DNA of 64,000 nt from Nanobdellota archaeon (GCA_042572295.1 JBHPFA010000001.1:79788-143787); one strand, 5' to 3'; counted from the first letter of the stretch, positions 5,849 through 46,776 are shown. The notes: generated from the sequence alone by a model not told the origin. Translations and numbers: made by a program.

Positions 5849-5875
5849 TTTTGTGATCTAGAGTTTTTACCTAGT

Positions 5876-13464: not shown

Positions 13465-14172
13465 ATGGGAAATCCAAGAGATAAAAAAAAGAGAGATATG
13501 TATAGGACTTCTAAAGAGAGAAATGAAGATGATGCTAAAGAAAAACCTACAGGAGTAAAAGAACAATCTGCACCATTAAGAGTTGTACAAGTCACTAATG
13601 CTTTAATCAATCATCCTGATTTTCCTAAGATTTACAAAATAGCTAATTTGATACCCGATAGGGGAAATAAATGGGCTTATTTACTTAGGACTATAAATGA
13701 GGAGATTGTTGAGGGATATAGTGTTGCACAAGCCAATGATATGGAGACTAGACAAAAGCTTCAAGGGTGTGGGCTAGAAGGATTGATATGTCCTTATCTA
13801 GAAGGAAATTGGACATTAGAAGAAAAAAGAAAGTCAACTATAGGACATGGTCTTTGCTATATTAATCGTGAAGAAATAGATACATTATGTCATGGAGATT
13901 ATGAGCATTGTAACCAATTCAAAGGGCATGCTCAGCAAATAGCATTGGGTTATAAAGAACCTACAAAATTCATAAGAACGAAAAATCCTTTGAAAGTTCC
14001 TGATGTTGATATTGGAGAATTTAATCTAAGAGATTTCATACAAGATTTAGATGATTGGTGGAAACAAGAGGGGAAGTATGGAGAAAATGAAGAATGGGAT
14101 CATTCACAAACCAATGCCTATGGTGGATTACATCCTAACCGCGGAGAAGGAGGACCCTATAGTGGACGATGA
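13465..14172 (+). CDS. Hypothetical Cys/His-rich protein with basic N-terminal peptide
   Basis: N-terminus RDKKKRDMYRTSKER is shared with the next ORF. Cys/His cluster CPYLEG...HGLCYINREEIDTLCHGDYEHC. The stop overlaps the next start (ATGA at 14169). Confidence 0.55.
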   Translation: MGNPRDKKKRDMYRTSKERNEDDAKEKPTGVKEQSAPLRVVQVTNALINHPDFPKIYKIANLIPDRGNKWAYLLRTINEEIVEGYSVAQANDMETRQKLQGCGLEGLICPYLEGNWTLEEKRKSTIGHGLCYINREEIDTLCHGDYEHCNQFKGHAQQIALGYKEPTKFIRTKNPLKVPDVDIGEFNLRDFIQDLDDWWKQEGKYGENEEWDHSQTNAYGGLHPNRGEGGPYSGR

Positions 14173-25071: not shown

Positions 25072-26502
25072 ATGGTAGATATTAGAACAGGATTGACTTT
25101 TTCTGACGTATTATTAGTTCCTAAAAGAACTCCTTTGAATTCTAGAGCAGAAGCTGATCTAAGTACAAGATTTACTAAGAACATCAGGTTGAATGCTCCT
25201 TTAGTCAGTGCTAATATGGCTACTGTTACTGAACATAAAATGGCTATAGCAATGGCTCGTGAAGGTGGTTTGGGAGTAATTCATCAATTCAATACAATTG
25301 AAGAGCAAGTTGAAGAGGTTAAGAAAGTAAAAAGAAGCACAAGTTATGTTATTGAGAATCCTCTTTCAGTTGGTTCTGGTTTGACTATTGAAGAAGCAGA
25401 TAAAGTCATGTTAGAGACAGGGGTTACAAGTCTATTGATAGTGGATAATAGAGAATTACAAGGAATATTCACTAAAAGAGATTATTTGTTCATAAATGAT
25501 CATTCAAAGAAACTTTCCGAAGTGATGACTCCTAAAGAAAAGCTAGTTACAGCTGATTGGGGGATTAGTACAGATGAAGCTAAGCACCTCTTGTATAAGA
25601 ATAGGATTGAGAAGTTGCCTTTGTTAGAAAATGGAAAGTTAAAGGGATTGATAACTACCCAAGATATTGTTAAATTGGAGAAATGGAAGGATGCAGCAAG
25701 AGATGAAAAAGGAAGCTTATTGTGTGGAGCTGCTATTGGAGTTAAAGATACTTTGGAAAGAGCTGAAGCTTTGATTAAAGCTGGAGTTGATGTTATTGTT
25801 TTAGATATTGCCCATGCACATTCTGATTTGATGATTAATAGAGTTAAAGAGTTTAAGGAAAAGTTTCCATCTGTTGATTTGATGGTTGGGAATATAGGGA
25901 CTGGAGATGCAGCTAGAGATCTGATTGAAGCTGGAGCTGATGGATTGAAAGTTGGAATTGGTCCAAGTCCTGTTTGTACTACAAGAGTTATTTCTGGAAG
26001 CGGAATGCCCCAAATAACTGCAATAATGGATGTCTGTTCTATTGCTAAATTATATGGAGTACCTGTATGTGCAGATGGAGGGATGAGTTATCCTGGAGAT
26101 GCTGCAAAAGCGATAGGTGCTGGAGCAAGTACTGCTTTTTCAGGAACTTTCTTTGCAGGAACTGATGAAGCTCCTGGAATGATAATAATGAAGAATGGTA
26201 AGAGGTATAAGAGATATGCTGGAAGCGCTTCTTATGAGAGCAGTCATGAAAGGAAAGAGAGATCTGAAAATAAGAGGTTAAAAGAGAAGATTGATGTGTT
26301 TGTAGAAGGTGTTTCAAATCTTGTTGACTATAAAGGGCCTGTTGAAGGTGTTATAAGATCAATTCTTAAAGGAATTAAAAGTGGTGCTAGTTATTGTGGA
26401 GCAATAAATATACAAGAGATGCATAAAAGGGCAGAGTTTGTAAGAATCACTTCAAGTGGATGGCAAGAAAGCCTTTCTAGAGGCCAGAGATTATCTGAGT
26501 GA
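25072..26502 (+). CDS. guaB: IMP dehydrogenase (with CBS subdomain)
   Basis: LTFSDVLLVP, VSANMATVTE and the catalytic loop GIGPSPVCTTR. CADGG and a CBS pair insert are present. Confidence 0.85.
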   Translation: MVDIRTGLTFSDVLLVPKRTPLNSRAEADLSTRFTKNIRLNAPLVSANMATVTEHKMAIAMAREGGLGVIHQFNTIEEQVEEVKKVKRSTSYVIENPLSVGSGLTIEEADKVMLETGVTSLLIVDNRELQGIFTKRDYLFINDHSKKLSEVMTPKEKLVTADWGISTDEAKHLLYKNRIEKLPLLENGKLKGLITTQDIVKLEKWKDAARDEKGSLLCGAAIGVKDTLERAEALIKAGVDVIVLDIAHAHSDLMINRVKEFKEKFPSVDLMVGNIGTGDAARDLIEAGADGLKVGIGPSPVCTTRVISGSGMPQITAIMDVCSIAKLYGVPVCADGGMSYPGDAAKAIGAGASTAFSGTFFAGTDEAPGMIIMKNGKRYKRYAGSASYESSHERKERSENKRLKEKIDVFVEGVSNLVDYKGPVEGVIRSILKGIKSGASYCGAINIQEMHKRAEFVRITSSGWQESLSRGQRLSE

Positions 26503-27423
26503 TTCTTTAGGAGCATAAGTCCTAAATGCTTCTTTATTGAAAAGTTCCTTTAAAGCATAAATATCAAACTTATGGTCTGTTTTATTGAATTCAAAATAAG
26601 TATTCTTGAAATGCCTTCCAGTAAGTGCTAATGTTCCTAGAATATCCAACATTTTGTGCCTTACTAGCTCATTTCCATCATATCTGAATCCTCTCATGTT
26701 TGGATCTCCATTTGATTCCTCACTTAGAAAACAATAGTTTGTCTTAGTTGCACCATGGATTCCTAAACTTCTTGTAATGTCCACTAAAGATTCTGGTAAT
26801 TTGTATTTTGTCTTTATAGGAGGTCTTGCAGACATTACTTCTTTTTCATAATTTGAAGGGCTTACATCGAAAAGAAATTCTCTGTTCCCTATGGCTTTAT
26901 GGTTGTAAAAAGCCTTGCTTCTTATATTAAATCCATTACCATGCATCACTTCTAGGCTGCAAGGTTCTTTTTTATGAGTATTATCTTTATTGCTCCATAA
27001 CAATGTTGGAGATTCTTTAGAATACTCCCAAAACTCTTTTGGAGAGTCTTGTATGTATAAACCTGCTCTTTTTAGTGCTTCAAAATATTCCTTTCCACAG
27101 TTATCTGTTGTTGGGCAAGTATCATCTGATAATTCAATTACTAAATTGTCTATGCCTAAAGCATAAACTGAAGATAAGATGTGTTCGACAATATGGATTT
27201 TTGCATTGCCATTCTCTACAGCAAGAGTCCTTCCAAACGTTCTTTGGACTTGTTTAGCGTTTTCTAAGTTAGCCTCAACTAAATCTTTCCCTAATAGAAA
27301 AGCTAATCCACTGTCTTGTTTTGCAGGGTGGAACACTGCTTGATTGTTTAGATTGTTGAATATATTTATTCCTTTCACCACCACTGGGCGATTAATAGTA
27401 GTTTGTAAATCCGGTCTACTCAT
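26491..27423 (-). CDS. LpxC-fold (UDP-3-O-acyl-GlcNAc deacetylase-like) zinc deacetylase homolog
   Basis: [23 protein letters not shown] aligns with E. coli LpxC [39 protein letters not shown] aligns with EFVRHKMLDAIGDLYM, so the Zn ligands His/His/Asp are conserved. Confidence 0.65.
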   Translation of the reverse strand: [310 protein letters not shown]

Positions 27424-29081: not shown

Positions 29082-29154
29082 GGCTCCGTAGCTCAATGGC
29101 TAGAGTACTGGCCTTTTAAGCCAGGTGTTGCGGGTTCGAGTCCCGTCGGAGTCA
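29082..29154 (+). tRNA. tRNA-Lys(UUU)
   Basis: Acceptor GGCTCCG/CGGAGTC. D arm GCTC-AATGGCTA-GAGT. Anticodon arm CTGGC-CTTTTAA-GCCAG. T arm GCGGG-TTCGAGT-CCCGT. Discriminator A. 73 nt. Confidence 0.9.
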
Positions 29155-29155
29155 T
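29143..29155 (+). repeat. att-like core copy 0 (inside tRNA-Lys 3' end)
   Basis: CCGTCGGAGTCAT. The 18-nt version GAGTCCCGTCGGAGTCAT starts at 29138. Confidence 0.85.
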
Positions 29156-29214
29156 GTACCCTTTTGACTGATTCAAGAGATGCCAACTATTTCTTAGAAA
29201 TCTTCTAAAATTAT

Positions 29215-30186
29215 TTAATTTTCAAAGATCATTTTCTTTGCTGGGAAAAGGTGATCTTCACCCATTATTGCAGTCTCTACTTTATTGATAACTTTTGAAA
29301 ATTCTTTTGTTAAATCCGAAATAATCTCAAGATAATCATGATAACTTTCACTCATAATCTCTAACTCTATATCCCAAGGACTTATTTGTTTTACCAAATG
29401 AATTATTTTTGGATTTCTCTTTGAATAATTCATCAATCTTTTTTCATCTTCTATTGCCAAATTCTTGAAATATAAAAAAGTTTTATAGAATTCATACCCT
29501 AAAAGATTAAAGTCTATCTTAGCAGCATATCTAAAGATGATCCCCTTATCTCCTAATTTCTTCATCCTACTTCTTATAATATCTATTGTGGAGTTATACT
29601 TTCTTGCAATATCAACGAGATTGATTCTGGCATTGCTGAATAATTCTTTGAGTATCTTCTTCTCTACTTCATCCAAGATGTAATCTCCTTGTATGCCAAA
29701 CATAACTTTCCATTCTGTTTCTGATTCATAAAGAAAAGTTTTATCATGCACACTAACATCTACCAATACCCCTGTATAACTTTCTAAAATAAGATCTTTG
29801 AATTTTGAAAATAATTCATTTTTCAGTTCAAAGAATTCTCTGTTTGACTTTACAAAATATGTTAGGCCAGCATTCCAAGCTCCCTCTGCAATTCCAAGCC
29901 ATAAAAGCCTTTTATCTCTCTTTACAAATTCTACAAATTTCTTCTTTTGTTCAGGCTTATTAGAAAATTTAAGATATATCTTCGCAGTAGTATACCCTAC
30001 TTTTGTAGGATCTATCCAAATAGTATATCCTTTTAGGACTCCTTTATTCTCTAGTTGTTTAATTCTATACCTTACTGATTCCTTAGATTTCCCAATTATT
30101 TTTGCTAATTTTGTTTCTGGAATTCTACAATTCCTATCTAGCTCAAAGAGGATCCTTCTATCTGCCTTATCTAAGTTTACTACCAT
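29215..30186 (-). CDS. Tandem-duplicated Lrp/AsnC-family transcriptional regulator
   Basis: Two HTH+RAM-like units: LDKADRRILFELDRNCRIPETKLAKIIGKSKESVRYRIKQLENKGVLKGY and LDEVEKKILKELFSNARINLVDIARKYNSTIDIIRSRMKKLGDKGIIFRY. Confidence 0.75.
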   Translation of the reverse strand: MVVNLDKADRRILFELDRNCRIPETKLAKIIGKSKESVRYRIKQLENKGVLKGYTIWIDPTKVGYTTAKIYLKFSNKPEQKKKFVEFVKRDKRLLWLGIAEGAWNAGLTYFVKSNREFFELKNELFSKFKDLILESYTGVLVDVSVHDKTFLYESETEWKVMFGIQGDYILDEVEKKILKELFSNARINLVDIARKYNSTIDIIRSRMKKLGDKGIIFRYAAKIDFNLLGYEFYKTFLYFKNLAIEDEKRLMNYSKRNPKIIHLVKQISPWDIELEIMSESYHDYLEIISDLTKEFSKVINKVETAIMGEDHLFPAKKMIFEN

Positions 30187-30286
30187 TTTAGTAAATAATC
30201 GTTTATATTTATAAATATTTCCATTTTTTGACTAAAATACTGAAGAAACTTTAATATATAAAGTATTACTATCCAGTAATAATAAA

Positions 30287-31021
30287 ATGGGAATTATAAA
30301 AAACCACAAGACCTTAATAGAAAAACTAAAAGAATCAATTAGTGAAACTAGTAAAGAGCTCATTGCTATTCAAGCAGGCCATTTCCCTCTTCGCCTTAAT
30401 AAGGGGAAAAGAATTCTTGAAGAAGGGTTAGATACATGGGGAGAATTTAGTGAGTATACTTTTGATGTAGGGTGTGAACTTGCAAAATACTCTCAAGAAT
30501 TAGGAAAAAAGACAAGAGTTTACATTGTTTGTGATGACTTACGTTATGCGAAAGGGTATAACCTCTCCCGTGAAAAAGATCCGAGACTCATTAAATGGCA
30601 AAAAGCAAGATTAAAATTTTATAGGGACCAATCAAAGACTCTGCCAAATAAATATGAGGAAATTTTGAAAAAGTATCACTTGGGCAATGAATTAATTGTT
30701 AAACCAAATAATCCAAAAAATAATTCTAATTATTTTTCAGAGGTAAGTTTAAGAGACAAGAATAAAGATAGGCTATGTCTTAGCTATTCAGCATGTAAAG
30801 ATGAATACCTTGGATTATTAGACAAATATATCTCTGAAGAAAAAGATTATTTCATTAGTTTTATCCCAAATATCTGCTCCCATGCAATACAAGATGCGAT
30901 CTGGGTAGATAAGCCAAATTTGAAAACAAGTCATATTTTTGTGGATACAGGGGTTAATTCCCCTCTAAAGTCAATTGATAGGCAATATATCGATGAAGAT
31001 ATCACAGTCTATAGAAAGTAG
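30287..31021 (+). CDS. Hypothetical protein (element A cargo)
   Basis: 244-aa ORF divergent from the Lrp-like gene across an AT-rich palindromic TATA region. No motif recognised. Confidence 0.55.
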   Translation: MGIIKNHKTLIEKLKESISETSKELIAIQAGHFPLRLNKGKRILEEGLDTWGEFSEYTFDVGCELAKYSQELGKKTRVYIVCDDLRYAKGYNLSREKDPRLIKWQKARLKFYRDQSKTLPNKYEEILKKYHLGNELIVKPNNPKNNSNYFSEVSLRDKNKDRLCLSYSACKDEYLGLLDKYISEEKDYFISFIPNICSHAIQDAIWVDKPNLKTSHIFVDTGVNSPLKSIDRQYIDEDITVYRK

Positions 31022-31095
31022 GAATCTATAAATACTGGTGCCACTTTGGTGCCTTATAATCATTTGGCATCTCTGTGATCAGTCACAATGGTGTA

Positions 31096-31113
31096 GAGTC
31101 CCGTCGGAGTCAT
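31096..31113 (+). repeat. att-like core copy 1
   Basis: GAGTCCCGTCGGAGTCAT, identical to tRNA-Lys 29138-29155. Confidence 0.85.
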
Positions 31114-31244
31114 CTACTCTCATGGTAAATCCAAGAGTCACAAACCTGTACAAGTCCTGTATAAGTTTAAGCCTTAATTCTAACATAAACTAAACAGTTT
31201 AAAAGGATTGTCGAGAGTGAGTGGATGTGTTAAGCATTGGCGAG

Positions 31245-31637
31245 CTAATCTGATTTTATTGGTCCTCTTGACAACAATTCTAATTTAACCACCTTTTTAC
31301 AATAATCAAAGAATGTTCTCCGCTTCACCCCTATTGCAGCCGCCCCAATATATCCCATTCCTCTTTCAACTTGAATACAAGATCTTCTTAATACATGCGC
31401 CCTTATCTTATCTTCTAACTTTAGATCTACTGGAGATGTTACTATCTTGCTATCCACCTTTGAAAAGAAGAAAATGTTATGCTCCCTGTATGCTGGGGGG
31501 CTTGTCTTCTGGTGAATTGTATAAACTGAGATATATCTGTTTAAACCTAAAATTTCAATATAGTTTGTTTGTAATCCACGAATATCTCCTTCTATTTCTT
31601 CAAGATACATTCTTTGAAATCGATTTAAATTTTTCAT
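31245..31637 (-). CDS. 130-aa minimal tyrosine-recombinase-like protein (tentative)
   Basis: GAGAGGAG RBS and TTTATA/TTATAAAT boxes lie upstream. Candidate catalytic residues in order: GLNR, HQK, AHVLRR (HxxR), then Tyr in FFDY 31 residues after the His. No N-terminal DNA-binding domain and no second His. Confidence 0.35.
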   Translation of the reverse strand: MKNLNRFQRMYLEEIEGDIRGLQTNYIEILGLNRYISVYTIHQKTSPPAYREHNIFFFSKVDSKIVTSPVDLKLEDKIRAHVLRRSCIQVERGMGYIGAAAIGVKRRTFFDYCKKVVKLELLSRGPIKSD

Positions 31638-31796
31638 TTTACTCCTCTCAGAATTAGGTTCTGAGGCACCAACACCTCTAATTTATAAGAAGGTTAGGGG
31701 TATAAAAGCTTTCCCAAGACTTACAATTTTATATTTAACCTGTATAAAACCTGTATAACTTTGTGTCTCTCTAATTTACCACAACTATCCAGTGTG

Positions 31797-31809
31797 CCGT
31801 CGGAGTCAT
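31797..31809 (+). repeat. att-like core copy 2
   Basis: CCGTCGGAGTCAT. Confidence 0.8.
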
Positions 31810-31900
31810 TCCAAAATTTCTATGGCCCTTAAGTGTCCTCTTCAGAAGTTTTATATATCTCTCTAACGAGGAATATAATATCAAAAGGGAGGCTGATTAA

Positions 31901-32056
31901 ATGATAGAATATAAAACAATGGGTTGGTTACAGCTAATTGGGGCTGTTGTTGCAGGTTTTTTTGGATATCAAGATAGTAATTGGGGTGTTTTAACTCTTG
32001 CAATAGTGCTACTATTAACATCCATACACCACCTAACCACTAAAAAGAAACATTAA
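31901..32056 (+). CDS. 51-aa two-helix membrane peptide
   Basis: Not in ORF track. GGGAGG lies 8 nt upstream of the ATG. Translation is MIEYKTMGWLQLIGAVVAGFFGYQDSNWGVLTLAIVLLLTSIHHLTTKKKH. Confidence 0.45.
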   Translation: MIEYKTMGWLQLIGAVVAGFFGYQDSNWGVLTLAIVLLLTSIHHLTTKKKH

Positions 32057-32090
32057 TTTTTAATTAGTAAATGAAAGGGGGAAATGATAA

Positions 32091-32735
32091 ATGAAAAAAA
32101 TATTTATTTTATTAGCAACTTTAGTTTTAGCAAGTGCTTTTGTTTTAGCTCAAGGTCAAGGAATTCATGAACCTGGAACTGGCATTGAAAATCCTGAATT
32201 AAAAGCTGTAGGCCAAGGAACTGGACAAGGCTTAGAAGAGGGTGAAGTAATGGGTGCCGGAGAAGGTAAAAAATTAAGAGCTGAGGCTGGAACCTATAAA
32301 AATCAGGCAGGTATGCAAATGCAATTACATAGGCAAGAAAATGGCCAATGTAGGCTTGAAGTTGAAGGGGTTATTGCAGATTGTCCGAATAACATGACTC
32401 AAGAGATGTTCCAAAATAGGACAAGGTTACATACAATGCTTTCAAATGGAAGGGATGCAGAAATTAAAGTTATGCCAAATACTGCTTCAGAAACTGCTTT
32501 ACAGAGATTGAGGTTAAGAAATTGTGACGAAGATTGTCAAATTGAACTTAAAGAAGTAGGTGCTGGAGAACAAGTAAGAGCAGCTTATGAAATGAAAGCT
32601 CAAAGAAACTCAAAAGTTTTTGGATTATTCAGGGCGAGAATGCAAGTTCAAGCACAAGTTGATGCTGAAACTGGAGAGTTGATTCAAACCAAGAAACCTT
32701 GGTGGGCTTTCTTAGCAACAGAAGCTGAAGAGTAA
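32091..32735 (+). CDS. Secreted protein, unknown function
   Basis: Signal peptide MKKIFILLATLVLASAFVLAQG. Gly/Gln/Glu-rich N-terminal region and two Cys pairs. C-terminal block VDAETGELIQTKKPWWAFL. Confidence 0.6.
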   Translation: MKKIFILLATLVLASAFVLAQGQGIHEPGTGIENPELKAVGQGTGQGLEEGEVMGAGEGKKLRAEAGTYKNQAGMQMQLHRQENGQCRLEVEGVIADCPNNMTQEMFQNRTRLHTMLSNGRDAEIKVMPNTASETALQRLRLRNCDEDCQIELKEVGAGEQVRAAYEMKAQRNSKVFGLFRARMQVQAQVDAETGELIQTKKPWWAFLATEAEE

Positions 32736-32774
32736 TTTTTTAATTTATTTTTTCTTTTTCTTTATTTTTTTATT
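32736..32774 (+). terminator. Long oligo-T tract after 32091..32735
   Basis: TTTTTTAATTTATTTTTTCTTTTTCTTTATTTTTTTATT. Confidence 0.45.
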
Positions 32775-33065
32775 TTATTGACTTGGGTCTCTACTCTCTA
32801 TCTTAATCGCTTTTCCTTTTACTATTGCTTCTGCTATTTTCTTTCTTCCAGATTTTAGAATTCTTGATAATGTAGGCTGAGAAACATTCATTTTCTTTCC
32901 TGCCTCTTCTTGAGGAATTTCATTTAAATCTACTAATCTAATTGCCTCAAATTCTGGCATGCTTAGGACAGTTTCTTCTAGATCAATCATCCTTATACCT
33001 GCAGGTTTAAAATATGAAGAGTTAGGCTCTCCCCTAACTCTCCTTCTAATACAAGGTCTAGGCAT
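32775..33065 (-). CDS. DUF134 (UPF0251) HTH DNA-binding protein
   Basis: MPRPCIRRRVRGEPNSSYFKPAGI...LSMPEFEAIRLVDLNEIPQEEAGKKMNVSQPTLSRIL. Start taken at the ATG at 33065, because the track's longer start at 33104 would overlap the upstream DUF5320-like ORF. Confidence 0.75.
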   Translation of the reverse strand: MPRPCIRRRVRGEPNSSYFKPAGIRMIDLEETVLSMPEFEAIRLVDLNEIPQEEAGKKMNVSQPTLSRILKSGRKKIAEAIVKGKAIKIESRDPSQ

Positions 33066-33066
33066 T

Positions 33067-33213
33067 TTATTGGTTATTTCTTCTTCTACCAAGACCTCTT
33101 CCACAAGGCCCTAAACCTTTTCCAACTACAGGTTTTGCATCTTTGCAATCTCCTAATTGTCTTCCAGTTTTAGGCCCTTTTCCATCAGGTCCTGTTCCGT
33201 CTTTATTTGGCAT
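33067..33213 (-). CDS. DUF5320-like small Gly/Pro-rich protein
   Basis: Not in ORF track. GGAGGT lies 8 nt upstream. Translation is MPNKDGTGPDGKGPKTGRQLGDCKDAKPVVGKGLGPCGRGLGRRRNNQ. The stop is 1 nt before the DUF134 start, and DUF134/DUF5320 pairs are a known association. Confidence 0.6.
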   Translation of the reverse strand: MPNKDGTGPDGKGPKTGRQLGDCKDAKPVVGKGLGPCGRGLGRRRNNQ

Positions 33214-33380
33214 ATTATTGTACCTCCATGTTATGAATACCTATTCATTACTACTATATATACTTTTTGGTTATCCCTTAATAAGTCCTGATTATAGAAA
33301 ATTATTTAAACTCCAGCGACGTTAAATGATTAACAGGCACATTAAACTCTTGTAAGAGTCATAGATTTTCTGTAATGGCA

Positions 33381-33393
33381 CCGTCGGAGTCAT
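33381..33393 (+). repeat. att-like core copy 3
   Basis: CCGTCGGAGTCAT. Confidence 0.8.
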
Positions 33394-33420: not shown

Positions 33421-34599
33421 CTAGAATGTCTTTCCGAGAGTTAGTGAATGAAGATTTCCTTTAAAATCACATAACTCTCTGGCAATATTTCCTAAAGACC
33501 TTATTTGAGAACCACTAGTATAAACATCATCAAATAAAATAACATTTTTGAACTCTCTGAGGGATGTTCCTTTCTTTACGCCAGTGGTTGAGTAATGCCC
33601 TTCTCTGTTTCCCCCTTCGTGTGAGGAAGATTTTGGATATACTCTATAAAAAACCCTTTTTGATAAACTATTGCCAAAATGATTTGAATTAAGACTTTTT
33701 GTAATTACATTATTGATATCATAAAAATAGCAAAACTCTGGAAGAGAGTTGGGTGCTGCAAGAATTGCTGTTTCTCCTACAAGATTCATTGAGTCTATCT
33801 TTTTTAGAAGGGTGCTATAAAAATTTTGAATAACATCCTTAAATCTCTTTCCTTCTTTGATCCTTCCATTGAAAAAATATTCGCTTCTTTGCCCCTCTTT
33901 TATTTTTGATCTTCTAATTTCTTTACTTTCTTTGAACCTTAAAACATCTGAAGCAAAGTCGTATTTGGGATTATTTGCATAAGGATATTTAGTAACAGGA
34001 TAGTAATCATCTAGGAAAGATAACTTTATTTCAGGGTCTCTTAAGGGGGCTGTTTCTAGAAATGCATATTTTTCAGTGTTTTCTCTTTTGTTATAATTTA
34101 TTTTTCCTTCCCCAAACTTTTCTATTGCTTCTTCCAGCTCAGAAATATCTGAAACAATAATGGAGGGTTCTGATTTTGCCAGTCTTTTGGGAGTACTTTC
34201 TCCCCAAGTAACTGCAATAGAAGGTATTTCGAGCCCATGGGCAGTTAGCATATCTATAGGATTATCTCCAATTATTATTGCATCTAAAAACATTGAGGAT
34301 TTGTGTAATAGCTCTGCCTTATTTGGTTTTCCCAGTGAGGCATTTATTTTTATTTCAGAAAAACCATGTTTTCTTAGTAAAACCTCTGAATAGTCATGTG
34401 GAGAGTTTGTTACTATCTCTGCTTTTTTATGTTTACTAAGTTTATTTACTAGTTTAACCAACTGATCATAATAGGGCTTAGTAGGGACCTTATCTGGATT
34501 CTCCACCACAAATTGTTTTCCCTCTCTTGTGCAATTGAATGGTCTAAGTCTACTTGTATCAATTAATGTTCCATCCAGGTCAAATAAGCATTCTCTCAT
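33421..34599 (-). CDS. HAD-phosphatase domain fused to ComFC-like phosphoribosyltransferase domain
   Basis: N-terminal HAD motifs are LFDLDGTLIDT (I), IVTNSP (II) and K...IIGDNPIDMLTA (III/IV). The C-terminal PRTase PRPP loop is NVILFDDVYTSGSQIRSL, as in ComF/ComFC. Confidence 0.65.
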   Translation of the reverse strand: MRECLFDLDGTLIDTSRLRPFNCTREGKQFVVENPDKVPTKPYYDQLVKLVNKLSKHKKAEIVTNSPHDYSEVLLRKHGFSEIKINASLGKPNKAELLHKSSMFLDAIIIGDNPIDMLTAHGLEIPSIAVTWGESTPKRLAKSEPSIIVSDISELEEAIEKFGEGKINYNKRENTEKYAFLETAPLRDPEIKLSFLDDYYPVTKYPYANNPKYDFASDVLRFKESKEIRRSKIKEGQRSEYFFNGRIKEGKRFKDVIQNFYSTLLKKIDSMNLVGETAILAAPNSLPEFCYFYDINNVITKSLNSNHFGNSLSKRVFYRVYPKSSSHEGGNREGHYSTTGVKKGTSLREFKNVILFDDVYTSGSQIRSLGNIARELCDFKGNLHSLTLGKTF

Positions 34600-35462
34600 T
34601 TTTTGTTAATCCTTTTGATATTCTCTTTGTAATTTTCAAGCCAATTATGGTTCTTTAAGAAATTATTGGCTAAAACATAGATTGGCTTGTCCTGTTCTGC
34701 ACAAGACTTTATAGCATGTTGGGTTCCAGACTTATCTGAAGCCTTTATTACAACAATCCCTTCTGTAGAAAGTGAGACTGTTGTGAGGTTTCTATGTGCA
34801 AAATAAGAACTAAACGTTCTTATGCCGATAGGGTACTGGGAAACTAGTAAGTGCTCTTTAGCGATTATTTCCTGCAATTTTTTGTTTGAGCTAGGGTAAT
34901 ATTGATTGAGAGGAGTTCCTAAAACTGCAATTGTGCTTTTTCCAGCTTCAACTGCTTTAGTATGGGCAAGAGTATCACAACCTTTTGCCAGCCCGCTAAC
35001 AATAACATAATCTTTCTCCAGAAGTCTTTTCAATACATTAAATGCTTCCCCATATGCTGCTCGGTCTTTGTTTGGATAAATGTGTCTTGTTCCAACAACT
35101 GCAATATTTTCCCTATTTAGTAAACTTTTATCTCCCCTTGTATAAATTACAGGAGAATTTCCTTCTTTTTTCATGCTTTCAGGGAAGTTAGAATCATTTA
35201 CTGTTAGGACATCAAAGTCAAAATCTACCTTGTCTAGTGTGCTTATGACTTTTTCTATTCCTTTGATACTCCTTATAGAGTCCCCTACAGATAAAACATC
35301 TGGATTAAGGCTTTTGTAGATATTCTCAAAGCTCCCATATTCTAGAAGTTTTTCTCTAACAGAATCATTAGAACTTTTGGTTCCAATATTCATTTTTTTT
35401 GAGTAAATTAGGGCTGCATGAAACAGGCTTTCGTTTTTACTCTTATTTTCATATAGGGCCAT
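34596..35462 (-). CDS. dprA: DprA/Smf-like (SLOG Rossmann) protein
   Basis: IAVVGTRHIYP...VIVSGLAKGCDTLAHTKAVEAGKSTIAVLGTPLNQYYPSSNKKL...LLVSQYP...FAHRNLTTVSLSTEGIVVIKASDKSGTQH follows the DprA Rossmann-domain consensus. A 4-nt overlap links it to the downstream HAD-PRTase gene. Confidence 0.7.
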   Translation of the reverse strand: MALYENKSKNESLFHAALIYSKKMNIGTKSSNDSVREKLLEYGSFENIYKSLNPDVLSVGDSIRSIKGIEKVISTLDKVDFDFDVLTVNDSNFPESMKKEGNSPVIYTRGDKSLLNRENIAVVGTRHIYPNKDRAAYGEAFNVLKRLLEKDYVIVSGLAKGCDTLAHTKAVEAGKSTIAVLGTPLNQYYPSSNKKLQEIIAKEHLLVSQYPIGIRTFSSYFAHRNLTTVSLSTEGIVVIKASDKSGTQHAIKSCAEQDKPIYVLANNFLKNHNWLENYKENIKRINKK

Positions 35463-40021: not shown

Positions 40022-41491
40022 ATGGATAAACAACACACATTAATCAAAAATTTCCTTAAGAATCACTCCTTAGTGGAGTCTAATATTCTATCTTTCAATG
40101 ATTTTGTCGATAATAGAATGCAAGTTATTGCAAAAGAAGTTGCTGCTAACTTATCAAGTGAAGATATTAAAGTTGAAGTGGGAAAGATTAAGGTTGGAAG
40201 ACCAAATATTATTGAAGCTGATGGAAGCAGACACAATTTACTACCAGCAGAAGCAAGAATGAGAAACTTAACTTATTCAGCCCCTGTACATATGGAGATT
40301 ACTATAAAGAAAGATGATGAATCAGAACATTGTGACGTTGAGATTGGAAGAATGCCAATCATGGTTAGAAGTAAGTATTGCCACTTACACAATATGACTG
40401 ATGATCAATTAATTGAAAACCATATTGACCCAGCAGACCCTGGAGGTTATTTTACAGTCAATGGTAATGAAAGAATTCTAGTTTTATTAGAAGACTTAGC
40501 ATCAAATCAACCTTTTATTAACATAGATTCTAAAAATAAAAAGAAAAAGATACTTAGATTATTCTCACAAAGAGGATCTTACAAGATTCCGACTTCAATT
40601 CTTGAAGCAACTGATGGAATTCTTGAAATAAGTTTCTCAAGATTCAAGAATATTCCTTTAATTCCTTTGATTAAGTCATTGGGAGTTACAAAAGATGCAG
40701 ACATCGCTAAGTTAGTCGGAGTAGAAAGTGATAGTTTTGTTGTTAATCTTTATGAATATACTGGAATGCACTCAGCACTTGATGCATTGAATTTCATTGT
40801 TGACAGAACTTCAATGTTAGGAACAAAGAAAGAAGTTCAAGATAAATTAAAAACAAGAATTGATTCTTATCTTCTTCCTCATATCGGAGTCACACCTGAA
40901 AGTAGAGTAGAGAAAGCAGTAACTTTATGTAAATTAATGAAACAATTCTTTGTAGCTAAGCAAACTAAATACTTAAGTGATAAAGACCATTATGCTAACA
41001 AGAGAGTAAAGCTTTCCGGAGATTTATTCACAGACTTATTCAGAATTAACTTAACAATGTTGTTAAGAGACTTGCAAAACAATTTAATTAGACTTGCAAA
41101 GAAAAAGAAAATATATTCATTGATGACTCTTGCAAAGGCAACTTTGTTCACACAAAGAATTGAATCAGCTATTGCAACAGGTTCATGGATTGGAGAAAGA
41201 ACTGGAGTGACTAAAAACATGGATAAGACTAATTTCTTATCAATATTCTCTGACTTACAGAGAGTTATTTCATTACTTCCTTCCGAACAAGAGAACTTCA
41301 AAGCAAGAACCCTACACCCAACACATTATGGAAGGTTCTGTCCTATTGAAACTCCAGAAGGAACACCTATTGGTTTGAGAAAGAACCTAGCATTGTTAAG
41401 TAAGATTTCAACTGCTGTTGACTTAGACAGCAGACACTTTGTAGATACTCTAAAAGAAATTGGAATGGAGGTTCCAAGTAATATAAAATAA
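40022..41491 (+). CDS. rpoB2: RNA polymerase subunit B'' (N-terminal half of split RpoB)
   Basis: LPAEARMRNLTYSAP, DPGGYFTVNGNERILV, HYANKRVKLSGDL and THYGRFCPIETPEGTPIGL. Confidence 0.95.
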   Translation: MDKQHTLIKNFLKNHSLVESNILSFNDFVDNRMQVIAKEVAANLSSEDIKVEVGKIKVGRPNIIEADGSRHNLLPAEARMRNLTYSAPVHMEITIKKDDESEHCDVEIGRMPIMVRSKYCHLHNMTDDQLIENHIDPADPGGYFTVNGNERILVLLEDLASNQPFINIDSKNKKKKILRLFSQRGSYKIPTSILEATDGILEISFSRFKNIPLIPLIKSLGVTKDADIAKLVGVESDSFVVNLYEYTGMHSALDALNFIVDRTSMLGTKKEVQDKLKTRIDSYLLPHIGVTPESRVEKAVTLCKLMKQFFVAKQTKYLSDKDHYANKRVKLSGDLFTDLFRINLTMLLRDLQNNLIRLAKKKKIYSLMTLAKATLFTQRIESAIATGSWIGERTGVTKNMDKTNFLSIFSDLQRVISLLPSEQENFKARTLHPTHYGRFCPIETPEGTPIGLRKNLALLSKISTAVDLDSRHFVDTLKEIGMEVPSNIK

Positions 41492-41492
41492 A

Positions 41493-43286
41493 ATGACAGA
41501 CATATTTTACAATGGAAAATTCGTAGGAGAAACTAATGAACCTAAAGAATTTGCTGAAAAAGTAAAAGACAAAAGAAGGCAAAGCCTACTTCCTCAAGAA
41601 ATGAGCATCAGACTTGTGGAAGAGAATGACATGATTCTTATTACTACAGAAACTGGAAGAGTTATCAGACCTTTAATTGTTGTAAAGAACGGCGAACCAA
41701 TGATTAATAATGAGCATCTTGAACAAATAAAAGAAGGAAGACTTAATTTCAGTGATTTAGTAAAACAAGGAATTATAGAATATTTAGATGCTGCAGAAGA
41801 AGAGAATGCATTAGTTGCATTAAACAAAGAAGACATCACTCCAGATCACACACACTTAGAAGTTGATAAGATTGCATTCTTGGGATTAATTACAGCATTG
41901 GTTCCTTTCGGAAACCATGACCAGAGTTCAAGATTAAACAGAGGAAGCAAGACTCAAAAGCAGGCTTTAGGCCTTTATTCAGCTGCATTCCCTATTAGAT
42001 TAGATACAGATGTAAGTATTCTTCATTATCCACAAAAGCCACTTGTTAGAAGTTTTATATATGATACTATTTCATTTTATCCTGCAGGACAAAACATGGT
42101 TGTTGCAATCATGCCTTACCAAGGATATAATGTTGAGGATGCAGTTATATTAAACAAAGGTTCTGTTGACAGAGGACTTGCAAGAAGCACTTATTTTAGA
42201 CCATATTCTGGAACTGAATTACATTATGCTGGAGGTCTAGCAGATGAAATTACTATTCCTTCAAAAGATGTTGGAGGATATAGAACTGAGAAAAGTTATA
42301 TGTATCTAGAAGAAGATGGAATCGTTTATCCTGAAGCTAAATTACGTGGTGGAGATATTGTTATAGGAAGAACTTCACCTCCAAAATTCTTATCAGAAAT
42401 GGAAGAAATGGCTATTGCTAAAGCGAGAAAAGAAAACAGTGTAATGATTAGACAAGAAGAGAAAGCTACAATTGATGGAGTTTTCATAACAAGAGACTCA
42501 GAAGGAAACAAAGTTATTCAAGTTCGTGCAAGAGATTTAAGAATTCCTGAATTTGGAGACAAATTCTCAACACCTCATGGACAGAAAGGAGTTGTTGGTT
42601 TAATTGCTCCGGAAGATGAATTACCTTTCACATCAAGTGGAATGAAACCAGATTTAGTTTTCAATCCTCACAGTATCCCGTCAAGAATGACAGTAGGTTA
42701 TCTATTAGAGCTACTTAATGGAAAGATTGGTGCTTTGAAGGGAGAATCAATGGATGGAACTTCATTCCAAGAAAGAGATGTTGCAGACCTTGAAAAGCAA
42801 TTGACTGAATTAGGTTTCAGAGCTGATGGAAAAGAAACTTTCTATGATGGAATTAGTGGAAAGATGATTGATGCTAAGATTTACGTCGGAAACATGTATT
42901 ATCTTAAACTTAAATACATGGTTGGAAACAAGCTTCACGCAAGAGGTATTGGAAAAGTTACATTACTTACAAGACAGCCAGTTGAAGGAAGAAGTAAAGG
43001 TGGAGCATTGAGACTTGGAGAAATGGAGAAGGATGCAATTATTGGACATGGAGCATCATTACTGCTTAAAGAAAGATATGATTCAGATAAAGTAACTATC
43101 CCTATCTGTATAAAATGTGGTTCATTAGCAATTGTAGACAAACTAAGAAAGAAAGAGTTCTGTCCAGTATGTAATGGAGCTGCTATCGAACCTATAGAGA
43201 TTAGTTATGCGTTCAAGTTATTCATGGAAGAATTAACTGCAATGCATATTTTCCCACACTTAGAATTAACAAATAAATACGAATAA
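41493..43286 (+). CDS. rpoB1: RNA polymerase subunit B' (C-terminal half of split RpoB)
   Basis: PFGNHDQSSRLNRGSKTQKQA, GYNVEDAVILNKGSVDRG, GDKFSTPHGQKGVV, GEMEKDAIIGHGAS and the C-terminal Zn ribbon CIKCG...CPVC. Confidence 0.95.
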   Translation: MTDIFYNGKFVGETNEPKEFAEKVKDKRRQSLLPQEMSIRLVEENDMILITTETGRVIRPLIVVKNGEPMINNEHLEQIKEGRLNFSDLVKQGIIEYLDAAEEENALVALNKEDITPDHTHLEVDKIAFLGLITALVPFGNHDQSSRLNRGSKTQKQALGLYSAAFPIRLDTDVSILHYPQKPLVRSFIYDTISFYPAGQNMVVAIMPYQGYNVEDAVILNKGSVDRGLARSTYFRPYSGTELHYAGGLADEITIPSKDVGGYRTEKSYMYLEEDGIVYPEAKLRGGDIVIGRTSPPKFLSEMEEMAIAKARKENSVMIRQEEKATIDGVFITRDSEGNKVIQVRARDLRIPEFGDKFSTPHGQKGVVGLIAPEDELPFTSSGMKPDLVFNPHSIPSRMTVGYLLELLNGKIGALKGESMDGTSFQERDVADLEKQLTELGFRADGKETFYDGISGKMIDAKIYVGNMYYLKLKYMVGNKLHARGIGKVTLLTRQPVEGRSKGGALRLGEMEKDAIIGHGASLLLKERYDSDKVTIPICIKCGSLAIVDKLRKKEFCPVCNGAAIEPIEISYAFKLFMEELTAMHIFPHLELTNKYE

Positions 43287-43287: not shown

Positions 43288-46200
43288 ATGGAAGAAACTG
43301 TAACAAAAAAAGTAGGAGCAATCAATTTTACGTTGATTTCACCAGAACAAATAAAGAGAATGGGTGTTGCAAAAGTTGTAACTCCAGAACTTTATGACAT
43401 GGGTGGTTATCCTGTTGATGGTGGATTAATGGATTTAAGACTTGGAGCTATTGATCCTGGAATCAGATGTAGAACTTGTGGAGGAAAATTAAAAGAATGT
43501 TTGGGACACTTTGGTTACATCGAAATGGCAAGGCCAACAGTCCACGTGAAATATGTTCCTATGATTGAATTATTATTAAGATCTTCATGTCAAGAATGTG
43601 GAAGAATCTGTTTAAGTCCTGAAAACATAGAGAAACATAAAGATAATATCCTTAAGAAAGCAAAAGATGCTAAGAAATGTCCTTATTGTAAAGCTGATCA
43701 AGAAAAAGTTAAAGTTGACAAGCCAACAAGCTTCATATCTGGAAAGAAAAGAATCTTTCCAACAGAAGTTAGAGCTAGACTTTCAAGAATCCCTGATGAA
43801 GACTTAAGACTTTTGAAGATTGATCCAGATTCAGCAAAGCCTGAATGGGGAATATTAACATTACTGCTTGTTCCACCAGTTACAGCAAGACCAAGTATTA
43901 CTTTAGATACTGGTGAGAGAAGTGAGGATGACTTAACACACAAGCTTGGAGACATTGTAAGAAGTAACCAGAGATTATGGGAGAATTTGAATGCTGGAGC
44001 TCCAGAGGTCATTATTGAGGACTTGTGGGACCTATTGCAATATCATATTACAACATTCTTTGACAATAGCATTGCTTCAGTACCCCCTGCAAGACATAGG
44101 TCAGGACAACCCTTGGAGACATTACATGAAAGAATTAAAGGGAAAGAAGGAAGAATTAGACACAACTTAGCAGGAAAGAGAGTAAACTTCTCCGGAAGAA
44201 CTGTTATTTCTCCAGATCCATTCATTAAATTAAATGAAGTAGGAATTCCTTTAGAAGTTGCAAAAATATTAACTGTTCCTGAAAGAGTTACAACTGCTAA
44301 TATGGCTAAATTAAAGGTATTGATGAAAAGAATTGACAAATGGCCTGGAGCATCTTACATAATAAGACCTGATGGTAAGCATAAAAAAATTACTGAAGAG
44401 CTTAAAGACGAATTAGTTGATGAAATTCAAATTGGTTATATTGTAGAAAGATATCTTCAAGATGGAGATATGGTCTTGTTCAACAGACACCCTAGCTTGC
44501 ATAGGGCAAGTTTAATGGGACACGCTGTAAGAATCCTACCTGGAAGAACTTTCAAACTACACCCTGGAACTGCAGGACCTTATAATGCAGACTATGATGG
44601 GGATGAGATGAATGTACACGTTCCACAAAATGAAGAAGCAATGGCTGAAACAAAGGTTTTGTTAAATGTTAATAATAACTTGATCAGCCCTAAAAATAAT
44701 ACAAACCTTCTTGGATGTATTGCAGATGCAGTTACTGGAAACTATCTGTTAAGTAAAAATGAGATTTCTAAAGATGACGCAGCACAATTGATTGCTACTG
44801 CTGGTGGAGATCTAGACAGAATAGAAAAGATGAAAGGTAAGGTTCTAGATGGAAAGGCAGTTTTCTCAGCATTACTTCCTAAATTAGATTATGTAGGAAA
44901 ATCCAGAACAAATGAGAAAGTGGATATTAGAGGGGGATTATTGACTTCTGGAGTAATTGATAATAGTACAATTGGAAAAGAAGGTGGAGCTTTAATCAAA
45001 GATATAGATAAACACGCTGGAAGAGAAGAAGCTATGAAGATTTTGCACAGTATCTTCACATTAGGAATAGCTTATTTGTCAAAACATGGATTCACAATCT
45101 CATTAGCTGATGTTAACATGCCAACAATTAAGAATGCTGTATCAAACGCAGTAAAAGATTCTTGGAAAAAGACTCAAGAACTAATTGAAGCATATCATGC
45201 TAACAAATTACCAGTTATTCCTGGAAAGACTAGAGAAGAATCTAGAGAAATGAAGATTTTGCATACTCTGAATGACGTAAGAACAAAGCTTGGAGATCTT
45301 GTAAAGAAAGAAATTCCAGATTCAAACAATGCAAACATGATGATTCTGTCAGGTTCTGCAGGAAATATCCTTCATGTAACTCAAATGGCTTGTTCAGTCG
45401 GACAGCAAGACTTATGGGCTAAGAGAATTGAGATAGGTTATACTGGAAGAACATTGCCTTTTTTCAAGAAAGGAGATTTAAGTCCTACTTCAAAAGGATT
45501 CATTAAATCAAGCTATGGAGACGGTTTAAAACCTCATGAATTCTTTTTCGGAGCTATCACAGGAAGAGATGCATTAATGGATACTGCATTAAGAACTCCT
45601 AGATCCGGATATCTTTATAGAAGATTGGCAAATGCTTTGCAAGACATCAGAATTGAATATGATGGAACTGCAAGAGATGCTAGAGGTAAGATTATTCAGT
45701 ATGTTTACGGAAATGATTTGAAAGATGTAAGCAAATTACACTTAAAGAATGATAAGATTGATGCTGGAGAAGCAATTGGAATTGTTACTGCTCAATCTTT
45801 TGGTGAACCTTCAACTCAGATGACTTTGAATGTATTCCACTTCGCTGGAGTTTCCGAAATGCAGGTAACTTTAGGTTTACCTAGACTTATCGAAATTTTC
45901 GATGCAAGAAAAAAGCCTTCAACTCCACAAATGGAGATTTTCTTAGAAGAACAATATAACAAAGACGAAAGTGCAAGGCTAATTGCAGAAAGAATCAAAG
46001 AAATAAACTTTACAGGCATTGCTACTGAATTCAGTGTATTGTTTACAGAAGGAAAAATTGAAGTTAAATTAGATAGACCTTCAATGAGATCTGCTCGTAT
46101 TACTCCTAAATCAGTAATTGATAAATTAAAGGAAGCAAAATACAAGGTAAGATTGAAAGATGATGAAACAATTATCATTAGCACAGAAACTGATTCATTC

Positions 46201-46776
46201 AAAGAGATGTACAAGATGAAAGAGAAGCTTAAAGACTTCAATATAAGTGGAGTTAAAGGAATTAGCCAAGTTTTGATTGTTAAGAGAGATAATAAATTTG
46301 CTATCTTAACAGCAGGAACAAACCTTGAAGAAATTTTAAAGATTAAAGGAATACATAAAGAAAAGACAACTACTAATGATCTCCATGAAACTTCAAATGT
46401 TTTAGGAATTGAAGCAGCAAGAAACGTAATTATTAAGGAAATCAACAAAGTTGTATCACAACAGGGTTTGGATATTGACAAAAGACATACTTTGCTTATT
46501 GCAGATACAATGACTGCTAGCGGTGAAGTGAAAGGTATCACTAGAATCGGAATTATTTCAGAGAAAAGTTCTATTTTAGCGAGAGCAAGTTTCGAAACAC
46601 CAATAAAGCATTTTGTAAATGCATCAATTCAAGGAAGTAGAGATGATTTGAGATCAGTTATCGAAAATGTAATCTTAAACCAGCCAGTACCTATTGGAAC
46701 AGGACTACCTGGACTGCTTGTTAAGATTACTGGATCTTTAGGTAAACCAAAGAAAAAACCTAAGAAGAAAAAGTAA
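43288..46776 (+). CDS. rpoA: RNA polymerase subunit A, with A' and A'' regions in one uninterrupted 1162-codon ORF
   Basis: A' motifs are the Zn ribbon CRTCGGKLKECLGHFG, NRHPSLHRASLMGH and NADYDGDEMNVHVPQ. A'' motifs are GEAIGIVTAQSFGEPSTQMTLNVFHFAGV and GLPRLIEIFDARK. No stop codon between them; the junction is near 45700-45790. Confidence 0.9.
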   Translation: MEETVTKKVGAINFTLISPEQIKRMGVAKVVTPELYDMGGYPVDGGLMDLRLGAIDPGIRCRTCGGKLKECLGHFGYIEMARPTVHVKYVPMIELLLRSSCQECGRICLSPENIEKHKDNILKKAKDAKKCPYCKADQEKVKVDKPTSFISGKKRIFPTEVRARLSRIPDEDLRLLKIDPDSAKPEWGILTLLLVPPVTARPSITLDTGERSEDDLTHKLGDIVRSNQRLWENLNAGAPEVIIEDLWDLLQYHITTFFDNSIASVPPARHRSGQPLETLHERIKGKEGRIRHNLAGKRVNFSGRTVISPDPFIKLNEVGIPLEVAKILTVPERVTTANMAKLKVLMKRIDKWPGASYIIRPDGKHKKITEELKDELVDEIQIGYIVERYLQDGDMVLFNRHPSLHRASLMGHAVRILPGRTFKLHPGTAGPYNADYDGDEMNVHVPQNEEAMAETKVLLNVNNNLISPKNNTNLLGCIADAVTGNYLLSKNEISKDDAAQLIATAGGDLDRIEKMKGKVLDGKAVFSALLPKLDYVGKSRTNEKVDIRGGLLTSGVIDNSTIGKEGGALIKDIDKHAGREEAMKILHSIFTLGIAYLSKHGFTISLADVNMPTIKNAVSNAVKDSWKKTQELIEAYHANKLPVIPGKTREESREMKILHTLNDVRTKLGDLVKKEIPDSNNANMMILSGSAGNILHVTQMACSVGQQDLWAKRIEIGYTGRTLPFFKKGDLSPTSKGFIKSSYGDGLKPHEFFFGAITGRDALMDTALRTPRSGYLYRRLANALQDIRIEYDGTARDARGKIIQYVYGNDLKDVSKLHLKNDKIDAGEAIGIVTAQSFGEPSTQMTLNVFHFAGVSEMQVTLGLPRLIEIFDARKKPSTPQMEIFLEEQYNKDESARLIAERIKEINFTGIATEFSVLFTEGKIEVKLDRPSMRSARITPKSVIDKLKEAKYKVRLKDDETIIISTETDSFKEMYKMKEKLKDFNISGVKGISQVLIVKRDNKFAILTAGTNLEEILKIKGIHKEKTTTNDLHETSNVLGIEAARNVIIKEINKVVSQQGLDIDKRHTLLIADTMTASGEVKGITRIGIISEKSSILARASFETPIKHFVNASIQGSRDDLRSVIENVILNQPVPIGTGLPGLLVKITGSLGKPKKKPKKKK

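Follow-up and report, generated by a model that had tools for sequence, protein, structure and literature searches.

Three tandem, palindrome-ended cassettes at the tRNA-Lys gene of a Nanobdellota archaeon: probable serial integration by a recombinase acting in trans

The tRNA-Lys(UUU) gene of a Nanobdellota archaeon is followed by three tandem DNA intervals, here called A, B and C, which we interpret, with a probability of roughly 0.6, as discrete cassettes lacking a recombinase gene that were serially integrated at this tRNA gene by site-specific recombination, with exchange at CCG-T-CGG and the enzyme provided in trans. The intervals lie in a 64-kb stretch of DNA (JBHPFA010000001.1:79788-143787, assembly GCA_042572295.1; hereafter the window) from an AT-rich archaeon (33.7% GC). 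DPANN archaea, to which the host belongs, have genomes of about 1 Mb with few recognizable mobile elements, and gene gain and rearrangement in these organisms are little understood. If mobile, the cassettes would be among the smallest integrative units described; they would carry ordinary regulators and enzymes as cargo instead of selfish functions and would hint at a hidden route of gene exchange. If they are relics only, they still record that this lineage used one tRNA-Lys site repeatedly.

Results

Four exact copies of the tRNA-Lys end delimit three intervals

The last 12 nt of tRNA-Lys(UUU) and the base that follows make up a 13-mer (CCGTCGGAGTCAT; the core) present at each of the four junctions, J1 to J4, that delimit intervals A, B and C (Table 1). 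The initial annotation of this DNA had pointed to four direct copies of the tRNA-Lys end. All four proved to be exact and on the plus strand, and they are unique, since no fifth match was detected in the window when up to 2 mismatches were allowed. The number of copies expected is 0.16, and none of 100 shuffled sequences reached four. The 7-mer CCGTCGG contained in the core has just two further sites in the window, and no repeats were detected for the 3' ends of the other tRNAs encoded there. The tandem repeat array at tRNA-Lys is a real feature of this DNA. It is flanked by two response-regulator-like genes, the tRNA-Lys gene itself and a HAD-family gene whose stop codon lies 27 nt from core copy 4.

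Table 1. Coordinates of the array, its cassettes and their genes, counted from the first nucleotide of the window. The tRNA is listed in its proposed role as integration target; arms are given as the 45 positions compared on each side, with the strongest part in the last column.
Feature	Position	Strand	Remarks
tRNA-Lys(UUU), intact; proposed integration target (left part of attB plus rebuilt 3' end)	29082..29154	+	Rfam RF00005, 69.2 bits; ARAGORN
Core copy 1, junction J1 (tRNA/A)	29143..29155	+	Centre T at 29146 (tRNA position 65)
Core copy 2, junction J2 (A/B)	31101..31113	+	Centre at 31104; identity with the tRNA over 18 nt from 31096
Core copy 3, junction J3 (B/C)	31797..31809	+	Centre at 31800
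Core copy 4, junction J4 (C/chromosome)	33381..33393	+	Centre at 33384
Cassette A	29156..31113	+	1958 bp including one core copy
Cassette A, left arm	29147-29191		Strongest 29165-29186
Cassette A, right arm	31059-31103		Strongest 31064-31085
A cargo: tandem Lrp/AsnC-type regulator, 323 aa	29215..30186	-	Two HTH_24/HTH_AsnC stretches, E 1e-19
A cargo: 244-aa protein (p244)	30287..31021	+	
Cassette B	31114..31809	+	696 bp
Cassette B, left arm	31105-31149		Strongest 31123-31144
Cassette B, right arm	31755-31799		Strongest 31760-31781
B cargo: 130-aa ORFan	31245..31637	-	Host-like codon usage
Cassette C	31810..33393	+	1584 bp
Cassette C, left arm	31801-31845		Strongest 31813-31836
Cassette C, right arm	33339-33383		Strongest 33347-33370
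C cargo: 51-aa membrane peptide	31901-32056	+	
C cargo: 214-aa secreted protein (p214)	32091-32735	+	
C cargo: DUF134	32775-33065	-	ATG at 33065; Pfam E 2e-22
C cargo: DUF5320	33067-33213	-	Pfam E 5e-10
Chromosomal flank: HAD-family gene (392 aa) and dprA	33421..35462	-	

The ends of each interval are symmetrical about a single base

To characterize the ends of the intervals, the DNA on the right of each junction was compared, for every possible centre, with the reverse-complemented DNA on the left of the junction that follows. All three intervals gave a sharp, gapless maximum at the same place, namely position 4 of the core, the T of CCG-T-CGG. Matches about this common centre amount to 30/45 in A, 26/45 in B and 25/45 in C, where the background is about 11. 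The other centres tested, whether on a base or between bases, all yielded 4 to 23. When the shared core is left out (positions 10-45), the arms match at 26/36, 22/36 and 18/36 positions in A, B and C, respectively; random pairs of sequences drawn from the window give 9.9 +/- 2.7 over 36 positions, with a probability of about 2e-4 of obtaining at least 21. Inverted repeats had been described earlier, with 19 of 22 matches in A, 18 of 22 in B and a weaker pair in C, and all were found as stated. They had also been placed about 10 nt inside the cores; this simple description can be refined, as all pairs are arranged without gaps about core position 4.

Pairing across junctions is poor: the right end of A matches the left end of B at 16/36 positions and the right end of B matches the left end of C at 8/36. 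Since the ends pair within intervals and not across junctions, each interval behaves as a discrete unit. The empty site reconstructed by joining the tRNA side to the chromosomal flank is not palindromic either (9/36). Predictions of folding gave a concordant picture. The rejoined junction of A forms a hairpin of -22.1 kcal/mol (z = -6.7), and the corresponding values for B and C are z = -3.2 and z = -1.3, whereas the four existing junctions and the empty site range between z = -1.9 and z = +1.4 and contain no palindrome. Thus, the proposal that the inverted repeats are the separated halves of an attP site fits the data, in that the rejoined junctions fold as hairpins and the existing ones do not. 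Altogether, rejoining the ends of any one cassette gives an imperfect palindrome, about 80-90 bp long, whose centre lies in the core.

Sequence identity to the right of the centre is limited to CGGAGTCAT, which is common to all three units. This segment is exactly sufficient for restoring the tRNA's acceptor strand and discriminator base, which would explain why it is kept in all units despite the differences between their arms. On the left side, cassette A alone carries the mimicry of the tRNA further; the 18-nt match recorded here by the initial annotation was borne out. As a control, tRNA-end repeats were inspected in four unrelated contigs (L029, L035, L086 and L089). None shows a palindromic register, indicating that the palindrome is not a generic by-product of tRNA-end repeats.

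The arms of A resemble those of B (16-20 matches in 36), and both have the motif TG..T.AT.CAAGAG....CAA. No further copies of the arms were found in the window outside the island formed by the three cassettes. The arms stand behind the 3' ends of both genes in A, next to one 3' and one 5' end in B, and before both 5' ends in C. Their register is therefore constant whatever the orientation of the neighbouring genes, which argues that the arms are not expression signals. A peculiarity of cassette B is the presence of four copies of (A)ACCTGTAYAA, all in the same orientation, at 31143-31164 and 31737-31758. Upon rejoining of the ends, two copies would fall on either side of the palindrome, a layout that recalls, by analogy, the arm-type or accessory-protein sites of an integrase attP.

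A model for serial integration at tRNA-Lys

We envisage that conservative site-specific recombination placed A, B and C, in succession, at the 3' end of tRNA-Lys(UUU). The attachment site of a circular cassette would be the imperfect palindrome of about 80-90 bp, with its centre, CCG-T-CGG, corresponding to tRNA positions 62-68. To the right of this centre, the site would contain what remains of the tRNA (AGTCA) plus one base; integration would rebuild a complete tRNA proximally, and each event would leave a 13-nt copy of the tRNA end behind the cassette. Strand exchange would take place within the 7-nt sequence CCGTCGG. The position of the symmetry axis on a base implies an overlap of odd length, as in tyrosine integrases of the lambda type, whose overlap is 7 bp (PMC8371274), and not the 2-bp stagger of serine recombinases. 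One-base symmetry allows both the exchange point and the sequences of the circular junctions to be predicted exactly: the putative circle junction would read right end, CCGTCGGAGTCAT, left end, and in the case of A would include GGTGTAGAGTCCCGTCGGAGTCATGTACCCTTTTGACTG.

Because no recognizable recombinase is encoded in the cassettes, the enzyme must act, or have acted, in trans. It could be specified elsewhere in the genome, by a helper element at the same tRNA-Lys site, or it could be a host recombinase. The idea of small elements making serial use of one att site, put forward when the array was first noticed, is strengthened by the rebuilt tRNA, the common centre and the pairing of ends within each element; the mobility that went with it gained no such backing. 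Mobility of the cassettes, like the circular intermediate, the exchange point, the class of the enzyme and any continued movement, is what we infer from the arrangement of the sequence.

No recombinase gene in the window

Essentially all open reading frames (ORFs) of at least 110 amino acids (aa) in the window were compared with Pfam, and none contains an integrase, resolvase, Cas1 or transposase domain. Sequence searches against PHROG and PDB gave no match to a recombinase, and tblastn with two archaeal tyrosine integrases revealed neither a gene nor a remnant in the window. There is no helper element with an integrase for the tRNA-Lys att site within these 64 kb, the rest of which is core chromosome (RNA polymerase, S12, S7, EF-2, EF-1alpha). 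The recombinase, if it still exists, is encoded outside the window.

In a separate region of the window, a 335-aa ORF with good coding potential (57240-58247, minus strand) terminates at a distance of 2 nt from the tRNA-Ser(GGA) 3' end. Its position is integrase-like; it has no match in Pfam, PHROG or PDB, and the end of tRNA-Ser is not repeated.

Cargo genes

The cargo of the cassettes consists of regulators and host-type genes (Table 1). The initial description was accurate for the genes of A and C. The same cannot be said of the label "recombinase-like" given to the 130-aa ORF of cassette B, which has no match in Pfam, PHROG or PDB and no homologue among 5.8 billion clusters and 1.84 billion representatives. 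Its host-like codon usage suggests that it is probably a real gene; the single-sequence structure model is too poor for use (pLDDT 44.7).

In cassette A, p244 belongs to a six-member family (30-39% identity) with conserved motifs. A structure model with a predicted template-modelling score (pTM) of 0.74 suggests a Rossmann-like alpha/beta fold; the model gave no significant fold match in PDB and nothing recombinase-like. Homologues of p244 are found in chromosomal operons, either between two MacB/FtsX genes (L099-L101) or after Kae1/TsaD (L102-L104). The window has its own ABC_tran-MacB-MacB operon (58606-62635), orthologous to that of L099 (4013-7936) but without a gene of the p244 family; the window's copy of this family resides in cassette A, 30 kb from its ABC operon.

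In cassette C, p214 has a homologue with 53% identity in contig L040, located 3 kb from a DUF5320-DUF134 pair; neither a tRNA nor repeats were found in that neighbourhood. DUF134 and DUF5320 of C are 81% and 85% identical, at the amino acid level, to their counterparts in L016-L018, where the two genes come immediately after that of a 389-aa tyrosine integrase, within an element that also has a primase-helicase. Identity at the nucleotide level is about 83% and includes an operator-like palindrome upstream of the two genes, TGAATACCTATTCA at 33234-33247 in the window and TGAATATATATTCA, in two copies at 5913-5972, in L016. This conserved palindrome is likely to be an autoregulatory site of DUF134, a helix-turn-helix protein. 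The match to L016-L018 means that the module can ride integrative elements; it does not imply that C originated from one.

The integrative element of L016 (4740-10682; also in L017 and L018/L023) is compact and comes from contigs of marine or sediment origin. Besides about eight small ORFs, it comprises the genes for the 389-aa tyrosine integrase, DUF5320, DUF134 and a 519-aa primase-helicase. Beyond it lie a 120-nt sequence repeated three times in tandem (11031-11330) and a type I restriction gene, and 24 nt past its last ORF is the sequence TCACTAATCCAAGAG, which resembles the arm motif of A and B. Its att sites were sought and none could be defined.

Alternative explanations

The principal rival to serial integration of small cassettes is that A, B and C are decayed relics. 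Three larger autonomous plasmids or proviruses would have lost their integrase and most other genes through internal deletion and would persist as immobile stubs with att ends. Loss of the integrase after integration has been described for archaeal integrated elements (PMC8371274), the fully host-like composition and codon usage are those expected of old insertions, and the link of DUF5320-DUF134 to an integrase in L016-L018, as well as the stub-like intervals of 95-500 nt between tRNA-end repeats in other contigs, can be read in the same sense. However, six ends out of six are intact and in exact register, tblastn disclosed no fragment of an integrase pseudogene, and the intervals are filled by intact ORFs with good coding potential, among which p244 and p214 are of host type rather than of plasmid or virus type. 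Moreover, known archaeal cases span 9-23 kb and have repeats of about 44 bp (PMC9897764). On balance we consider decay from larger elements unlikely, albeit the most serious of the competing accounts. That nothing mobile is involved at all, the pattern being due to chance, to local duplication or to motifs with a regulatory or structural role in a native cluster of genes, is very improbable. Host-like composition and host-type cargo families would agree with such an origin; it is contradicted by the occurrence of four exact GC-rich 13-mers in AT-rich DNA where 0.16 are expected, by three independent end pairs that share their centre base and each stand 4-6 standard deviations above background, by arms without any consistent position relative to gene starts or ends, and by the DprA-HAD neighbourhood of relatives, which has neither the cassette genes nor an adjacent tRNA.

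A further possibility is that the cassettes are passengers of the transposon type, such as a miniature inverted-repeat transposable element (MITE), a mobile insertion cassette or a mini-casposon, mobilized in trans by a DDE transposase or by a Cas1 casposase that would recognize the terminal inverted repeats and strongly prefer the 3' end of tRNA-Lys as its target. On this view the 13-mer would represent a duplicated target site; alternatively, insertion beside an existing tRNA end would yield head-to-tail arrays. Casposons target tRNA 3' ends, generate duplications of about 14-15 bp and can be found in tandem. They resemble the present units in their insertion site, terminal inverted repeats, short flanking direct repeat and potential for tandem arrays, and long terminal inverted repeats surrounding cargo without an enzyme gene, with conserved CGG...CCG tips and element-specific inner parts reminiscent of two-part insertion-sequence inverted repeats, are compatible with transposition more generally. 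What speaks against it is the geometry of the ends. In casposons the inverted repeats are flush with the direct repeat, whereas here they are offset by exactly 6 nt in all three cassettes (9 nt on one side and 3 nt on the other). A single centre inside the repeat explains this constant offset and a duplication does not, which disfavours transposons and casposons alike. If the units are read as transposon ends, the duplication shrinks to 1 nt only, and the same 9 nt of tRNA are found at the left end of every cassette though the arms differ. There is no Cas1 or transposase to be found among the window's ORFs, a casposon polymerase is not present either, and the arms are confined to the island. 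Casposon-derived elements were rejected on the position of the centre and the lack of Cas1 in the window, MITEs and mobile insertion cassettes on the confinement of the arms and the lack of a transposase in the window. We regard transposition in any of these forms as improbable, well behind decay from larger elements.

Composition, relatives and the case against serial integration

Several observations weigh against serial integration of recombinase-less cassettes as the explanation for the array. Positions 4-9, beside the proposed overlap, are asymmetric in A and B, whereas a simple tyrosine recombinase would not usually have core-type sites of this kind. Cassette C has arms that differ in sequence from those of A and B, so that a single trans-acting enzyme reading the arm sequence is not an explanation. 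As no recombinase for the cassettes was found in the window, the class of the enzyme is a guess. GC content and codon usage of the island are host-like, and its tetranucleotide distance ranks at 0.16 among windows of equal size; the comparison of k-mer and GC content between island and flanks, advocated in the initial annotation, thus uncovered no deviation. The cargo families are mostly chromosomal elsewhere, and nothing marks the island as foreign. Members of the DUF134 family are 54-87% identical across 80 metagenome loci, mostly chromosomal, and an integrase lies beside DUF5320-DUF134 in 2 of the 41 loci of at least 6 kb. In so conserved a family, 81% identity to the copy linked to an integrase is a weak argument for transfer, and the DUF5320-DUF134 pair is not taken as a strong marker of foreign origin. 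Evidence on whether the island DNA is foreign is weak either way.

Comparisons with other genomes belong on the same side of the balance. Relatives were sought in species-representative genomes, JGI (Joint Genome Institute) metagenomes and a protein collection. No close relative turned up in these collections, where the closest homologue of a flank protein has 46% identity and exact look-ups of both flank proteins returned no match. When the 3' end of the tRNA was sought in 185,579 species genomes, the scan retrieved only bacterial tRNA-Glu genes that have the same 23-nt end and a single core each, and a 26-mer of tRNA-Lys had no match in the JGI metagenomes. Homologues of the HAD gene (35-46% identity) retain the DprA-HAD pair; in these distant relatives, no tRNA is adjacent to the pair and none of the cassette genes is present in the neighbourhood. 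The island had no match in phage and plasmid collections, and a scan of viral contigs for the core together with the left end produced one chance match, in a GC-rich phage gene. None of these searches yielded an empty site, a variant array, a second copy of a cassette or another copy of an arm. The notion of a family of trans-mobilized elements, part of the initial annotation, gained no support, there being no second arm copy in the window and no related element in the phage, plasmid and genome scans.

Downstream of the HAD gene of one distant relative (L009:10333-16688), repeats of 64 nt (two copies), 114 nt (two copies) and 20 nt (three copies) are interspersed with small ORFs and a tandem AsnC regulator. 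These repeats are unrelated to the tRNA-Lys core; they may mark a further stretch of cassette-like organization that is based on another repeat.

Comparison with known systems

Tandem integration and integrated elements lacking an integrase are both documented in archaea (PMC8371274). To this extent the array is not as unlike described archaeal integrated elements as had been thought; its tiny size and long palindromic sites are indeed unusual. Archaeal plasmids and proviruses integrated at tRNA genes by SSV-type or pNOB8-type integrases (PMC8371274, PMC9897764) share with the cassettes the use of the tRNA 3' end, direct repeats of that end, a rebuilt tRNA, tandem arrays and the occasional loss of the integrase. 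The usual elements of this kind measure 9-23 kb and have repeats of about 44 bp (PMC9897764); at some 9-23 kb or more, they carry integrase, replication or virion genes, whereas the cassettes have 13-nt repeats, no such genes and 40-nt inverted arms about the proposed exchange point. Judged as a tRNA element of the tyrosine-integrase type, a cassette thus presents the direct repeats and the rebuilt tRNA and lacks an integrase of its own.

Serial integration at one tRNA is documented in the tycheposons of Prochlorococcus (10.1101/2020.12.28.424599). Likenesses extend to the streamlined genome of the host, the outward displacement of older elements, the partial tRNAs that separate elements, and adaptive cargo of host type. 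However, tycheposons are several kb or more in length and have a tyrosine recombinase and replication genes, neither of which is present in the cassettes. Cis-mobilizable elements (CIMEs) and site-specific accretion at the att sites used by conjugative (ICE) and mobilizable (IME) integrative elements have been reviewed for Streptococcus (PMC5704250). Like CIMEs, the cassettes are bounded by att-like sequences, contain no recombination or transfer genes and sit in tandem at one site; their integrase, too, would come from another element. CIMEs are bacterial, lie beside a recognizable parent helper ICE and are usually larger; in contrast, the cassettes have no helper within 64 kb, a DPANN host, a size of 0.7-2 kb and long palindromic sites.

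Integron cassettes, too, are small, hold one or two genes but no recombinase, form an array at a single site and are provided with an imperfect palindromic site. The integron attC is contiguous at one end of the cassette and cut at its edge, while in the present model integration splits the palindrome and the cut falls at its centre. In addition, the genes of A, B and C are in both orientations with upstream regions of their own. An integron array was rejected on the grounds that the junctions as found are not palindromic and that no IntI, attI or Pc accompanies the array. One may still imagine an integron-like system of DPANN archaea in which a recombinase encoded elsewhere moves one to four host-type genes (0.7-2 kb) at a tRNA, with a fixed centre and cassette-specific 40-nt arms that are perhaps read by their shape. 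We deem such a system improbable; were it to exist, gene-poor symbionts could use it to shuffle and exchange small sets of genes.

Integrative mobile elements exploiting Xer (IMEX) have no recombinase gene, mimic the chromosomal dif site, form tandem arrays and are integrated by the host enzyme. The dif site has an 11-6-11 organization with the axis between bases (PMC8371274). Here the axis falls on a base, positions 4-9 are asymmetric in A and B, and the target is a tRNA and not dif, so the Xer-dif model was rejected. Serine recombinases were set aside since their 2-bp stagger would also put the axis between bases. With transposons, integrons, serine recombinases and Xer/dif set aside on the anatomy of the ends, what remains is conservative recombination with an overlap of odd length, most simply the 7-nt CCGTCGG. 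What is new about the array is the combination of very small size, host-type cargo, long cassette-specific palindromes centred on one base and a DPANN host.

Other observations

In small archaeal contigs, tRNA 3' ends recur 61-1452 nt downstream. The spacing is 95 nt in L029, at a tRNA-Gln (minus strand, 3279-3353), about 500 nt in L086, also at a tRNA-Gln (minus strand, 14869-14940), and 1452 nt in L089, where a 1.45-kb insert occupies a tRNA-Arg (5455-6981). In L035 (1577-1900), three copies of a tRNA end are followed by DUF5320-DUF134. Very short att-bounded inserts may be common in such archaeal lineages. That the spacing of tRNA-end repeats can be well below 2 kb is relevant to tools used for delimiting elements.

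A sequence matching the left arm of B at 18 of 22 positions (TGGGAAATCCAAGAGATAAAAA) occurs at 13466-13487 (plus strand), 55 nt past tRNA-Asp and at the start codon of an unannotated 235-aa ORF. No repeat of tRNA-Asp is found nearby, and the match is probably due to chance.

Two genes of bacterial type were recognized in this archaeal genome, an LpxC homologue (26491-27423, minus strand; Pfam E 4e-40) and DprA (34596-35462, minus strand; Pfam E 7e-46); the DprA-HAD pair is conserved in several related small archaeal genomes (L009-L012). An intron-containing tRNA of 133 nt at 10478-10610 (plus strand; Rfam 50.3 bits), which confirms that the DNA is archaeal, was missed by ARAGORN in its default mode. 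Most archaea have subunit A of RNA polymerase in two parts, A' and A''. In the window, this subunit is a single 1162-aa ORF with Rpb1 domains 1-5 (43288-46776, plus strand), and subunit B is split into two ORFs, at 40022-41491 and 41493-43286.

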